A stretch of 38,912 nt of DNA from a virus. Positions 1,715-37,891 of the stretch are shown here, piece by piece. The stretch's first letter is position 1. Every line of letters begins with the position of its first letter. Under the pieces are notes generated by a model. That model searched no databases. It saw only the letters and a list, made by a program, of their open reading frames with translations, and was not told where the DNA came from. The position numbers were made by a program, and so were the translations under genes. The stretch lies in IMG/VR virus record IMGVR_UViG_3300010356_002141. One strand, written 5' to 3'.

Positions 1715-2599
1715 ATGAGTGAAAACTTAAATAAAAATAATGTAGACGATGCTTTTGCTAAAATCTTTTTAGGAGAGGTTAATATTGCAGAGAACAAACA
1801 TAGTGAAATTAAATCACAACCAATAGAAATAGAAGAACCAAAAAAGATAGAGGTCAAAGATGAGCAAGAACAAGAAGACATCCAAGAAGAGCCAAAAACA
1901 ACCGAAAAATCAGAAGAACAGCAAAAAGAACTGTTAAAAGCCGATTTAAAGGTTGAATATGAATCATTAAAAAAGCAATTAAATGATGCGAAATCTTGGG
2001 GACATAAGAAAAATGCTGCTTATATTAATGCTAAAAAGAAAATAACTGATTTCTTGTCTAAATTACAGGAAGATTCGCTTATAAATGAAGATGAAGCAAG
2101 TATTGCTCTTAAAGCCTTTGATGAACAGATAAGCGAAGAAGAGCCACAAAGTAATGACAAAGGTAATTCTTATGCTCAGCTAAAGGCCAATCTTGATAAG
2201 GAATTTAATATATTTAAAAAATATAATAAAACTTCGGAGTTAGACGAAAAATACCAAGCTTTTTTTGGATTTTTTCCCTTACTACCTGCTGATGAACAAG
2301 AAAAAATAGTCAATTATATTACTAGTGAAAGTCCAGAAGTGGTAATTGATCATATAATTACTACTGGTTCAGAGATTTACGAAACAGTTTATAAAGGTGC
2401 TACAAAAAGCGGTGGTATTATTCCATTTATAAAATCCTTACATGCTAAAATAGAAAAGCTAGAAAAGCGTAATAAGGAACTAGAGAGCGAAGTTGACACC
2501 ACCGAGGGAATAGTGCATAATAGGTCAATAAATTCTAAAGTTTCTAACCTTGCGAGTACGAAACAAACTAAAAGCTTTGCTGATATTTGGCAAAATTAG
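1715..2599 (+). CDS. Scaffolding-like protein (294 aa, acidic, K/E-rich, coiled-coil)
   Basis: Lies between the portal and major capsid genes. Composition is charged and low-complexity, with no TM segment. Confidence 0.55.
   Translation: MSENLNKNNVDDAFAKIFLGEVNIAENKHSEIKSQPIEIEEPKKIEVKDEQEQEDIQEEPKTTEKSEEQQKELLKADLKVEYESLKKQLNDAKSWGHKKNAAYINAKKKITDFLSKLQEDSLINEDEASIALKAFDEQISEEEPQSNDKGNSYAQLKANLDKEFNIFKKYNKTSELDEKYQAFFGFFPLLPADEQEKIVNYITSESPEVVIDHIITTGSEIYETVYKGATKSGGIIPFIKSLHAKIEKLEKRNKELESEVDTTEGIVHNRSINSKVSNLASTKQTKSFADIWQN
2546..2558 (+). promoter_or_regulatory. Exact copy of 13-nt motif AACCTTGCGAGTA (function unknown)
   Basis: Exact string match. It lies in the 3' end of the scaffold gene, about 250 nt upstream of the capsid ATG, on the sense strand. 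Confidence 0.6.
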
Positions 2600-2811
2600 A
2601 AACAATGGCATTTCTTCAAAGGAAGAGAGGCATTTTATTAATTAATAATGGAGGCGGCCTTAGCCTTACCTGCTAATCATTAATAGTAATTTCTCCCTCA
2701 TAACTTCGCTTTAAAAGATTTCTCCCGTTCTTGGAATTTAATTAATAAAATTTTAGGTTTTTACTTAAAGTTAATATTTTTTAACATTCAAAAAAAGAAA
2801 GGTAATTTAAA

Positions 2812-4047
2812 ATGGCGACATTCGATCGTAGTAATATTTTTCAAAACGAACTGTTCATGAAAAATGTTACAATCCCGTATTTACAGGAGTATAGAAACGT
2901 TACTAATTTTGCCCGTTTCATGGGTGGTAGTGATGCTGTTATTTATAACAAAATGGAAAACAAAGGCGATGGAGATCGTATTGTATTCCCGCTAAGACAA
3001 ACTTTTGATCCTGCTGTTGCAATTGGTAATGAGCAATTAGAGGGTAACGAACAAGAGTTAACTTATGTTAGCGATATGGTAGATGTTGGCAGAATAAGAT
3101 TTGCAACATTGCTAACTGATGTTCAACTTATGAGCTTACAAACTAAGTTTCAATTAGAATCTGACGTTAGAGCTGATTTACTTTCTCAAGCGGATTCACT
3201 AAATACAAAAAGAATTTTACAAGCTTTTGCACTTGCTTTTGATGGTGGTGCTGCTGGAATAAACCCTAGTTTAAATCAACAATTTAGTTACTCTGATTTA
3301 AGAGCTAGAATACTTGCATCTCGTCTTGATCAAGCTGCTGGTGGTATTTCAAGAGCTAGAATATTGATTGGTGATCCAAACCTTGTTGGCGGTAACGCTA
3401 GAACTACTTATGCTGACCTTACAACAGCTTTAGCAGTTGGTCAGTTTCCAGTCGCTACTAACACAATGAACGTATCACATATACGTCAGTTGTTTAACCA
3501 AGCTGCAACTGGTCAAAGTTTACCAATAACCAATGCTGCTTATACAGTTAAAGAATCTTCTGTTAGACCTTATAAATACAAAACACATCAAGGTTTTGAA
3601 GATAAGCGTTATGTACTCTTTATAGCCCCTGAGACTTACAATAAGCTAGCAGCTGATCCAGTATGGCAAGCTCAAGTAAACAGAGGTGTAATTGAGAATC
3701 AAGATCAACCATCAATTCTTTATGGTTCTATGTACAAAGGAACTATTGAGGGTGTAATGGTGATTGTTATACCAGAACTTAGCAATTTCCTTATTACCAA
3801 CGCTGCTGGTAACATTTATGCTTACTCTCTTTTCTGCGGTGCTGCTGCTGTTGGTTTTGGTATGGGTCAAACTCCAACCTTTACTTTCAGAAGTTCTACA
3901 GATTACGAATTGTATAAAGGTCTTGCTCACAATGAAATAAGCGGACTTAAATTGCTTAAATATCCATCCAAGGCTAGAGGTGTTAAAGGAAACAATAACA
4001 ATCTAGTTGAATATGGAATGGTACACTCATTTACAACTATAGCTTAA
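2812..4047 (+). CDS. Major capsid protein (HK97 fold, N4-like/DUF4043-like by eye)
   Basis: 411 aa, positioned after the scaffold gene. The segment KGDGDRIVFPL...LEGNEQELTYVSD..VGRIRFA resembles the LEGNEE-containing capsid family. Confidence 0.8.
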   Translation: MATFDRSNIFQNELFMKNVTIPYLQEYRNVTNFARFMGGSDAVIYNKMENKGDGDRIVFPLRQTFDPAVAIGNEQLEGNEQELTYVSDMVDVGRIRFATLLTDVQLMSLQTKFQLESDVRADLLSQADSLNTKRILQAFALAFDGGAAGINPSLNQQFSYSDLRARILASRLDQAAGGISRARILIGDPNLVGGNARTTYADLTTALAVGQFPVATNTMNVSHIRQLFNQAATGQSLPITNAAYTVKESSVRPYKYKTHQGFEDKRYVLFIAPETYNKLAADPVWQAQVNRGVIENQDQPSILYGSMYKGTIEGVMVIVIPELSNFLITNAAGNIYAYSLFCGAAAVGFGMGQTPTFTFRSSTDYELYKGLAHNEISGLKLLKYPSKARGVKGNNNNLVEYGMVHSFTTIA

Positions 4048-4058
4048 AGAGGTTAATT

Positions 4059-4565
4059 ATGTTTATATTAAATAGATACAACGTTACTACCCCTGCCGCT
4101 GCTGCTGCCGTTGGAGCAGTAAACAACGTAAACCCAAACGTAATAACTGGGGCTACAGGTAATAGTGCTGGTGCAGATTCAGTAACTCCGATTGCTGCTA
4201 ATGCTTCTTATGCTGATCAAGTGATTAGTAAATTAGTTGCAATTAGTATTCCTGGAGGTGGTGGATTATCTGCTGGTGTTAACAATTACCTTACTGTTGA
4301 TTTAGTAAAACTTGGTGTTTCAGGAGTTCGCCCAGTACTTGCAGCTCTCTTGCTAGGTGTTTATGATCCTAATTCTGATGAAAGAGTAGGAGCTGGTGCA
4401 ACACCATCATTTATAGGTATTTGGGACAAAACTGTTGCTAATGTCAACTCTTTATCAGTTGTTAACTCTAAACTGATTTTAAGGATTCCTACTGCTCAAA
4501 TAGCTTTATTTGAAGGCAAAACTGCAATGGTGCAATTATTTTATAGTACTGCTGCTGGTGAATAA
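4059..4565 (+). CDS. Ala/Gly-rich virion protein (possible head decoration protein)
   Basis: 168 aa, with an SD (agagg) and tightly packed after the capsid gene. The strong hairpin at 4578-4599 follows it. Confidence 0.35.
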   Translation: MFILNRYNVTTPAAAAAVGAVNNVNPNVITGATGNSAGADSVTPIAANASYADQVISKLVAISIPGGGGLSAGVNNYLTVDLVKLGVSGVRPVLAALLLGVYDPNSDERVGAGATPSFIGIWDKTVANVNSLSVVNSKLILRIPTAQIALFEGKTAMVQLFYSTAAGE

Positions 4566-4577
4566 CCAAGCATAAAT

Positions 4578-37587: not shown

Positions 37588-37601
37588 AATACGAGGAATC
37601 T

Positions 37602-37838
37602 ATGAGTACAAAACAAGAACTAATTGATCACATGAATGAAGAAAATACTGAGATGAATGCTTTAGTTGCACAGAAAACTCAACAAAAATCTGATATTGAT
37701 GCTGCAATTGCTCAGCAACAAGCAAATATTGATTATTTTAATGGTCAAAAAGATCAATGCGACGTAGATATTGCTGCATATCAGGTAAATATTAGTAAAA
37801 ATGATGAGATTATAGCTATTTTAGAAGCTAGTAGTTGA
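37602..37838 (+). CDS. Small coiled-coil protein (fibre assembly/chaperone candidate)
   Basis: 78 aa, Q/A/D-rich heptads, SD (gagga), directly after the fibre genes. Confidence 0.4.
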   Translation: MSTKQELIDHMNEENTEMNALVAQKTQQKSDIDAAIAQQQANIDYFNGQKDQCDVDIAAYQVNISKNDEIIAILEASS

Positions 37839-37862
37839 TTAAATACTAATTTTAGTTATAAT
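37835..37862 (+). promoter_or_regulatory. Sigma70-like promoter, TTGATT-16 nt-TATAAT
   Basis: Read directly from the sequence; overlaps the stop of the 78-aa gene. Confidence 0.55.
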
Positions 37863-37878
37863 ATCTTTAATATAAATT

Positions 37879-37891
37879 AACCTTGCGAGTA
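37879..37891 (+). promoter_or_regulatory. Exact copy of motif AACCTTGCGAGTA
   Basis: Lies 16 nt after the -10 element and 5 nt before the ATG at 37897. Confidence 0.65.

Follow-up and report, generated by a model that had tools for sequence, protein, structure and literature searches.

The subject of this analysis is a 13-nucleotide (nt) motif, AACCTTGCGAGTA, that recurs around the genome contained in the virus record IMGVR_UViG_3300010356_002141, a DNA stretch of 38,912 nt that is referred to as a whole as the window. The motif is a promoter-proximal, start-codon-phased leader motif of most lytic operons. Bases 1-127 of the window are repeated exactly at 38786-38912 as an assembly overlap, in which no copy of the motif lies, and the window represents a complete circular genome of 38,785 bp. 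It is 85% identical, over 80% of its length, to the Megaira polyxenophila phage MAnkyphage_25.80 (L001; OP381185, circular, 38,448 bp), a podovirus whose tail tubular proteins are T7-like and whose genome also carries Bet/exonuclease recombination genes, genes for a replication initiator and ankyrin-repeat proteins, and a divergent regulatory region. Judged by sequence, the window phage is a MAnkyphage-like podophage of a Rickettsiales host; a search of GTDB genomes with the portal protein, for a prophage or host, returned no match. The relatives used for comparison comprise approximately 100 stretches from viral and metagenome contigs, collected with three queries, namely the portal protein, the exonuclease, and the replication initiator.

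Exact copies of the 13-mer are located at 2546-2558(+), 17317-17329(-), 22383-22395(+), and 37879-37891(+). None occurs in 100 dinucleotide-preserving shuffles of the genome (expected number, 0), and the matches with up to three mismatches are likewise in excess (22 versus 9.0 +/- 3.0 expected), so the claim of a previous sequence-only reading that the four copies are not random is borne out by the shuffled-genome check for both sets. Near copies of the 13-mer lie at 29628 (one mismatch), 31191 (two), and 17761(-), 22162, and 22434 (three each), while the sites at 22058, 22313, 23864, and 20266(-) match the motif in its core only. When the sites of the window and its relatives are stacked, the conserved unit proves to be the 8-mer CTTGCGAG, with the preferred flanks A[A/T]C upstream and T[A/T]A downstream; the 13-mer is the form that this leader motif with core CTTGCGAG takes in the window lineage. 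The core is quasi-palindromic (CTYGCRAG), and a hairpin inside the 13-mer could have 2 bp at most. The motif is nevertheless asymmetric, as the sequence-only reading had stated, and the asymmetric CTTGCGAG is retained in preference to either perfect palindrome.

That reading had also listed variants, described the sites as dispersed, and found them co-oriented with transcription. Among the variants, 29628, 31191, and 20266(-) are present in relatives, whereas 22434 is not conserved; the sites at 22058, 22313, and 22434 near the replication initiator gene (rep) are all absent or degenerate there. The matches at 16552(-) and 23864 lie within coding sequence, and the former is not kept in L039, the only relative read at that place. 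About eight conserved sites remain, weaker copies included. They do lie around the genome, but six of them are placed directly downstream of promoters, 11-24 nt beyond a sigma-70-like -10 box, and are not scattered intergenically. All exact copies and all promoter-downstream copies follow the local direction of transcription; a single counter-oriented motif-like copy, TACCCTGTGAGTA at 17343-17355(+), overlaps the -10 box of the lysis promoter.

The motif is restricted to one clade, consisting of the window, MAnkyphage, their close relatives, and a distant lineage represented by contig 3300005987_000005 (G5987). When the viral collection was scanned for the 13-mer with an ATG after N4-5, 23 places were found, four of them from this phage family; the remaining 19 are unrelated and chance-like, and no enrichment beyond the family is apparent in that collection. 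Among the unrelated phages, the IMG/VR contigs L108, L109, L123, and L117 (61-66% G+C) have the exact 13-mer 5 nt before the ATG of tail-fibre-like open reading frames (ORFs), and L109 and L123 keep it despite a diverged upstream flank, with a total number of matches that still fits chance. Over-represented 9-mers of distant relatives (CGGTAGTAG, AGGAGCAGG, and others) were considered as equivalents of the motif and rejected as coding repeats. The 9-mer GGGACTGGA occurs 18 times in MAnkyphage, with overlapping registers present approximately 14 times as GGAGGGACT and related words; it is not among the top 9-mers of the window and is probably a coding tandem repeat in MAnkyphage.

Leaders and promoters of the lytic units

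The motif lies in the initial transcribed region of seven sigma-70-type units, which are those for capsid/tail, lysis, recombination, replication, small ORFs, terminase/tail fibre, and portal. In four of the six promoter-downstream sites of the window, namely 37879, 29628, 31191, and 20266(-), the 13-mer ends 4-6 nt and the core 6-8 nt before an ATG, giving the typical context of a -10 box (TATAAT, TACAAT, or TGnTATACT, often with a good -35 box), 10-20 nt, CTTGCGAG, 6-7 nt, and the start codon.

The exact copy at 37879..37891(+) belongs to the unit leading into the portal gene, 5 nt before the ATG of its first gene (37897) and downstream of the promoter TTGATT-16-TATAAT (37835..37862, +); the equivalent site is found in many relatives, with differing downstream genes. 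The portal gene itself begins at ATG 38669 and spans the circular junction, and the listed ORF 34-1710 is therefore 5'-truncated. In the small-ORF unit, a 12/13 match (AACCTTGCAAGTA, 29628..29640, +) lies 5 nt before ATG 29646, preceded by the promoter TTGCCT-17-TGTATAAT (29588..29616, +), and is also present in L008 and L009. Positions 29616-29640 have the appearance of a tandem pair, ACTTGTTAAGTA then ACCTTGCAAGTA, with a period of 12, and the core at 29628, CTTGCAAG, is a perfect palindrome, unlike the other sites. The terminase unit has an 11/13 match (AACCTTGCGAATT, 31191..31203, +) at 6 nt before the terminase ATG 31210, downstream of TTGTAT-17-TATAAT (31149..31177, +); in MAnkyphage, the terminase gene is preceded by CTTGCGAG, 7 nt, and GTG.

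Similarly, the recombination operon (exonuclease/Bet) carries the core copy CTTCTTGCGAGTT (20266..20278, -) 6 nt before ATG 20261 of its first gene, and the arrangement of CTTGCGAG, 6 nt, and ATG is retained in 13 relatives despite upstream indels. Its promoter, TTGAAC-17-(TGa)TACAAT (20293..20321, -), was read from the sequence and is conserved in relatives. The window ORF 19773-20423 probably starts at 20261. Motif-associated in-frame ATGs also occur in MAnkyphage, at 17318 and 18858 within genes 17237-17794 and 18702-19346, which suggests, from sequence, that the two genes begin 27 and 52 codons downstream of their annotated starts.

The capsid/tail and lysis units have longer leaders. The exact motif of the capsid/tail operon (2546..2558, +) lies within ORF 1715-2599, at its 3' end; the -10 box of the promoter TTGACA-17-CATAAT (2493..2521, +; 11/12 consensus positions, with no better match in the first 20 kb) is 24 nt upstream, and the capsid ATG 2812 is 253 nt downstream. 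This copy is exact in approximately 10 related contigs with varying flanks, and MAnkyphage retains just AACCTTGCG. The leader at 2559-2811 (~250 nt) has ~93% identity to MAnkyphage, a conservation at least equal to that of the flanking coding sequence. Its predicted fold places the motif inside a long hairpin (GTTTCTAA...TTAGAAAC), behind which a terminator-like hairpin and its T-run occupy 2607-2639; the leader may be an attenuator or another structured leader.

In the lysis operon, the exact motif (17317..17329, -) is followed by a hairpin (17293-17310) and a T-run, with the ATG at 17220. In L028, L031, L037, and L043, just 6-7 nt separate the motif from the ATG of this lysis gene; the window lineage has an insertion of ~90 nt, a hairpin included, between the two. 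The promoter is TG-extended, TTTAAA-17-(TGt)TATACT (17352..17380, -), and its TGnTATACT is conserved in relatives. The counter-oriented arm TACCCTGTGAGTA could form a hairpin of 8-10 bp with the motif in the sense RNA, and 8 of its 11 departures among relatives are wobble-compatible on the sense strand. A downstream anti-core, CTCGCAATTTG (17243..17253, -), is complementary to TTGCGAG and is conserved with wobble-compatible changes in the long-type leaders. Further upstream, the motif-like AACCTTGCAGCTA (17761..17773, -) follows a hairpin and has AAGAACCTTGC (11 nt) in common with the rep-leader copy. The ORF just downstream of this element, 17412-17726(-), encodes 104 amino acids (aa), has its own Shine-Dalgarno sequence and no homologue in the related contigs, and resembles an insertion between the recombination and lysis units.

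The generality of the typical context was assessed on 58 distinct CTTGCGAG contexts from the ~100 related contigs. An ORF-starting ATG lies 5-7 nt downstream of the core in 28 of them (27 at 6-7 nt), compared with a background of 2.4%; a -10 box lies 8-30 nt upstream in 42 (background, 21%); and both are present in 26 (background, 0.5%). The genes that follow CTTGCGAG fall into at least eight non-homologous kinds, and start-associated sites are found only at the first gene after a promoter, never at internal genes. The core is tightly spaced to the ATG (6-7 nt) and loosely spaced to the -10 box (10-20 nt), which argues for a role at the level of RNA or translation. The RNA- or translation-level alternative offered by the sequence-only reading is the better one. 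Its nut/put-like version is a possible one, which agrees with the promoter-proximal position and with the terminator-like hairpins behind the capsid and lysis copies but leaves the ATG phasing unexplained; the short-leader sites have no room for a boxB/put-type hairpin and no terminator before the ATG.

The same 6-7 nt separation is the usual distance between a -10 element and a transcription start, and the motif could on that ground be a -10-like box to which a phage factor redirects the host polymerase, making the mRNAs of the short-leader sites leaderless and providing rep with a promoter. No sigma-70 promoter is visible for rep between the terminator T2 and the ATG, and copies of the 22383 and 17761 type come directly after terminator-like hairpins. 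However, nearly every site already has a good sigma-70 promoter just upstream, no second conserved element accompanies the motif, no sigma-like or polymerase gene was detected, and the compensated hairpin of the rep leader, described below, is left unexplained. Moreover, the motif-less relative L019, whose portal protein is 78% identical, keeps the sigma-70 promoters at its homologous terminase and small head-module genes, where its leaders are plain and 8-10 nt shorter; because these promoters persist without it, the motif is a module added to ordinary promoter-leader regions and not the promoter itself. A promoter element is thus a very improbable reading. A sigma-54 promoter was rejected separately, as the GC of TTGC is not preceded by a GG at a distance of 10 nt.

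In the short leaders, the core ends 6-8 nt before the first ATG, i.e., at the Shine-Dalgarno position, which invites comparison with a start-associated translation signal of the Cluster K kind, read on the mRNA by the ribosome or an RNA-binding protein in place of a Shine-Dalgarno sequence. The phasing at 6-7 nt in 27 of the 28 start-associated contexts, the nearly constant use of ATG, the absence of canonical Shine-Dalgarno pairing at motif genes (anti-Shine-Dalgarno duplex energies of -2.5 to +0.1 kcal/mol versus a median of -4.0 for all genes), and a size, asymmetry, and orientation equal to those of the Cluster K sequences (PMC3203893) are all consistent with it. On the other side, pairing of the motif with the 3' end of 16S rRNA is limited to GAG and is lost in the 29628 and 31191 variants; the capsid, long-type lysis, and rep-leader copies are 97-253 nt from any start codon; and only the first gene after a promoter is served. 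The lineage-specific, concerted changes of the flanks, given below, argue against a fixed host reader, the viral collection shows no enrichment outside this phage family, and a translation signal of this kind is considered improbable. A plain extension of the Shine-Dalgarno sequence was rejected on the pairing and the energies just given, and complementarity to the loop of 16S helix 27 (CGCAAGGUU) was judged physically implausible.

The rep leader and a candidate antisense RNA

The exact copy in the rep leader (22383..22395, +; rep ATG 22527) can be regarded as the master copy of the motif. It lies in the loop between the stem arms 22368-22377 and 22403-22412, and the position of the motif, the hairpin, and a promoter-like block nearby are all conserved. 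In 12 distinct relatives, AACCTTGCGAGTA together with an AG on its 5' flank is invariant; AAAGAACCTTGCGAGTA is present in 11 of the 12, and the window has GAAG, so that only the AG is common to all. Around this loop of ~24 nt, the stem is altered by compensatory substitutions and indels, with coordinately changing arms such as TCTACTAAGG/CCTTAGTAGA, GTCTTACTAGG/CCTTAGTAAGAC, and GGCT..TACTAAAG/CCTTAGTA..AGCC. In G5987, whose Rep protein is 32% identical, an unrelated stem (CCAAACCGTCTTT/AAAGACGATTTGG) again displays the motif in its loop.

Where pairing in the stem is imperfect, an A.C or C.A on the plus strand corresponds to a G.U on the minus strand. The helices that RNAalifold predicts from the minus strand comprise 158 Watson-Crick, 28 G.U, and nine mismatched cells, and a plus-strand reading of these helices yields 158, 1, and 36, respectively. 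The minus strand is the more stable in 11 of the 12 relatives, and the same hairpin is predicted in all 12. The corresponding antisense RNA, predicted at 22330..22471(-) with a length of ~142 nt, has a 5'/3' closing helix (one pair of which shows a C-G to U-A double change) and two inner hairpins, one of them with UACUCGCAAGGUU, the exact complement of the motif, in its loop. The minimum free energy of the minus strand from 22471 to 22330 is -42.4 kcal/mol (z, -4.35; none of 200 shuffles as stable), compared with a z of -2.49 for the plus, or sense, strand of this region. In the window, the predicted RNA would end at a bidirectional terminator at 22330-22352.

Conservation in this region is highest in a block immediately to the left of the rep ATG, which is a candidate antisense promoter, TTGACA-17-(TGg)TAATGT (22477..22505, -). 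Its -35 box, its 17-nt spacer, the TG, and positions T1, A2, and T6 of its -10 box are invariant in 12 relatives, and G5987 has the counterpart TTGACA-17-TGgTATGGT. Seven leaders are complementary to the antisense loop over 9-16 nt, and the dispersed sites match differing sub-windows (up to 16 nt) of one 17-nt stretch, AAGAACCTTGCGAGTAA. The sites also change in concert with the rep-leader copy: GAGTA is found in the window lineage and GAGATT in G5987, where all sites, the one upstream of rep included, read CTTGCGAGATT(A/G) in place of CCTTGCGAGTA. Within the window lineage, co-variation between the flanks of the rep-leader copy and those of the dispersed sites was uninformative.

These observations suggest, with somewhat less than an even chance of being right, that the lytic operons are co-regulated by an antisense RNA pairing with the motif copies of their leaders; that this RNA is made and acts in trans is what we infer from the sequence. 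It would start ~7 nt downstream of the -10 box in 22505-22477(-), adjoining the replication-initiator gene, run opposite the rep leader for ~140 nt, fold compactly, and display the complement of the motif in a loop, while the motif on each mRNA would be the shared pairing target of this single phage-encoded RNA. Where pairing covers positions -19 to -7 of a first cistron, the 30S subunit would be kept from binding. For the capsid and lysis leaders, both of which have terminator-like hairpins and local complementary arms that can sequester the motif, pairing could change leader folding or termination. One RNA could thereby repress the lytic operons jointly. More speculatively, the sense rep leader, being a full complement of the antisense RNA, could on read-through titrate it and free the operons. 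A full master switch, acting on the capsid, lysis, recombination, terminase, portal, and rep leaders and coupling the start of replication to late-gene release through titration by the sense rep leader, is a possible extension that we hold to be less probable than the pairing itself. The candidate antisense RNA is, by construction, the single conserved element in these genomes whose motif specificity is built in.

Several points weigh against this antisense reading. Occlusion by an antisense RNA does not require the 6-7 nt phasing to the ATG, which would fit better a factor positioned by the start codon or a -10-like element for leaderless transcripts. The antisense -10 box is weak (TAATGT, 3/6), and the consensus scanner did not call the promoter; relatives other than the window have no obvious terminator for the antisense RNA. 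The count of G.U pairs is biased, the helices having been predicted on the minus strand, and the plus strand has a G.U-containing helix of its own. The covariation is modest: it comes from nine close sequences with two double-change pairs, and its scores are attained in 13-15 of 500 shuffles. The G5987 master copy reads ATCC and ATTG at places where two dispersed sites have AACC and four have ATTA, respectively, so that the likeness among dispersed sites exceeds what their match to the master copy explains, which is the behaviour expected of a protein consensus. Furthermore, the inverted arm of the lysis leader overlaps the -10 box and may therefore be untranscribed there, which would imply action at the DNA level.

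Searches of the region for other kinds of element gave the following. No Rfam family, C4 included, is matched at its gathering score (the best E-value, 0.31, belongs to a microRNA family that is unrelated); genes for tRNA or tmRNA were not found; and a pattern search for further rep-leader sequences yielded chance matches only. Iterons or origin repeats of rep (tandem repeats of ~19-22 bp) were rejected, since only one conserved copy lies upstream of rep. The noncoding stretch 21955-22330, between the gene of an 81-aa protein and rep, includes terminator-like hairpins at 22205-22228 and 22330-22352. The window-specific core copy CTTGCGAGATTAAAGGG (22058..22070, +), not found in MAnkyphage, is part of a 16-nt inverted repeat with 22307-22322; the repeat (22061-22077/22307-22322) would bracket both hairpins in the sense RNA and has a plus-strand G.U pair.

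Protein readers of the motif

The resemblance of the G5987 sites to one another, as well as the inverted lysis arm, bear on a further explanation, in which RNA polymerase is blocked by a sequence-specific phage or host protein bound at +5 to +30, immediately beyond each lytic promoter, in the manner of the dispersed, asymmetric C1 operators of P1. Such a DNA operator is a serious rival to the antisense RNA, albeit an unlikely one in our estimation. It accounts for promoter-proximal sites at seven units, for the quasi-palindromic core (CTYGCRAG), for flanks shared by the dispersed sites beyond the rep-leader match (AAC...TA, and ATTA in G5987), and for the inverted copy on the lysis -10 box, which, with a third inverted core ~65 nt downstream, recalls multi-operator looping. 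It accounts less well for a spacing that is loose to the -10 box and tight to the ATG, for the strict co-orientation of all promoter-downstream sites, and for the maintenance of an asymmetric core where either perfect palindrome might serve; the compensated hairpin that displays the rep-leader copy is again left unexplained.

The search for a reader also tells against the operator. The sequence-only reading had named the 108-aa winged-helix protein encoded at 21227-21553 as a candidate, yet identity between this regulator and that of MAnkyphage is only 27%, in two phages that share the core motif, and no closer homologue is present in other motif-bearing genomes, so that the proposal is not sustained. 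A gene co-occurrence search revealed no protein annotated as DNA- or RNA-binding that is common to all motif-bearing genomes and restricted to them. The boxes of CtrA (TTAA-N7-TTAA) and of alpha-proteobacterial LexA (GAAC-N7-GAAC) were rejected because their spacing does not fit.

The sequence-only reading had compared the sites in the first place to mycobacteriophage L5-type stoperators, asymmetric 13-bp sites at which the immunity repressor, bound genome-wide, stops elongating polymerase. The length, asymmetry, and orientation of the motif with transcription suit this comparison. L5-type phages, however, have dozens of stoperator sites bound by the immunity repressor, and in Cluster A phages the stoperator sequence and the repressor vary together; the window has about eight sites, limited to promoter-proximal leaders and phased to start codons, its candidate repressor is not conserved among motif-sharing phages, and the divergent promoters of the immunity region (21554-21708) contain no copy of the motif. 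Stoperators in the strict sense are therefore extremely improbable here.

Among the neighbouring genes, the 81-aa protein of 21709-21954 occupies a Cro-like position and has a Pfam CCDC90-like match; by its sequence, it looks like a membrane-anchored coiled-coil protein. ORF 26070-26375 encodes an ankyrin-repeat protein (Pfam E-value, 2e-15), as in MAnkyphage, and ORF 27990-28406 has a weak N-terminal match to a Thoeris anti-defence Tad2-like domain (E-value, 1e-4, under the curated cut-off).

Comparison with known systems

Phages of Rickettsiales endosymbionts are, to our knowledge, almost unstudied, and we are aware of no description of the timing of their gene expression. The motif defines a regulon of a phage family that is present in dozens of freshwater metagenome contigs; it predicts operon starts, and gene starts of the published MAnkyphage record can be corrected with it. 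A motif read by a protein would constitute a new dispersed-operator system. If the antisense reading holds, a phage whose host is an intracellular endosymbiont would possess, at the level of RNA, a genome-wide equivalent of the control exerted by stoperators or C1 operators, and a concrete, testable mechanism would be suggested for the unexplained start-associated sequences of mycobacteriophages.

The described phenomenon that the motif most resembles is that of these start-associated sequences (SAS) of Cluster K, and not the L5 stoperators, with which the SAS are contrasted in PMC3203893. The SAS are asymmetric 13-bp sequences in one orientation, 3-7 bp before mostly ATG starts (Pope et al. 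2011, PMC3203893); they contain an AGGAG core with extended pairing to the 3' end of 16S rRNA and are associated with 10-20 genes, internal ones included, in the non-structural half of the genome (PMC3203893). Their function was still said to need experimental verification in a 2025 paper. The motif of the window is likewise 13 bp long, asymmetric, one-directional, and placed a few bases before mostly ATG starts, at genes of different families and in a phage-lineage-specific manner. Unlike the SAS, it differs in sequence from GGGATAGGAGCCC, has no AGGAG Shine-Dalgarno core, and is carried by a phage that is not of Cluster K ancestry; its approximately eight sites serve only first genes after promoters, with structural and lysis operons included, and some copies are far from any start codon. 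The candidate trans-acting antisense RNA has no described SAS counterpart.

Small phage RNAs that repress lytic functions in trans are exemplified by the CI RNA of P4, whose seqB pairs with seqA and seqC, and by the c4 RNA of P1 and P7. The candidate RNA is similar to these in that a short sequence within it is complementary to repeated targets in leaders and ribosome-binding sites, and in that a conserved structure is predicted with the pairing sequence in a loop. Unlike P4 and P1, in which there are two targets in one operon each, approximately seven separate operons would be targeted here, and we know of no earlier case of one phage small RNA with identical targets at every lytic operon. 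The candidate is also without an Rfam C4 match and differs from the P4 and P1 RNAs in being cis-antisense to the rep leader, as in plasmid copy-number control. There, CopA/CopT of R1 and RNAI of IncB/IncI plasmids provide constitutive antisense RNAs opposite the rep leader, with hairpin-loop recognition and YUNR-like loop tetramers. The candidate RNA has the same position opposite the rep leader, would be recognized through a loop, and has YUNR-like tetramers (CUUG and CUCG); unlike the plasmid RNAs, for which only rep control is known, it would have dispersed trans targets at phage operons.

With the stoperators of L5 and Cluster A phages and the C1 operators of P1, finally, the motif shares dispersed, asymmetric, and orientation-biased sites that tie many units to one regulator. 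Unlike these systems, in which the repressor varies with its site, the local regulator of the window phage diverges while the motif stays unchanged, and the sites are phased to start codons.

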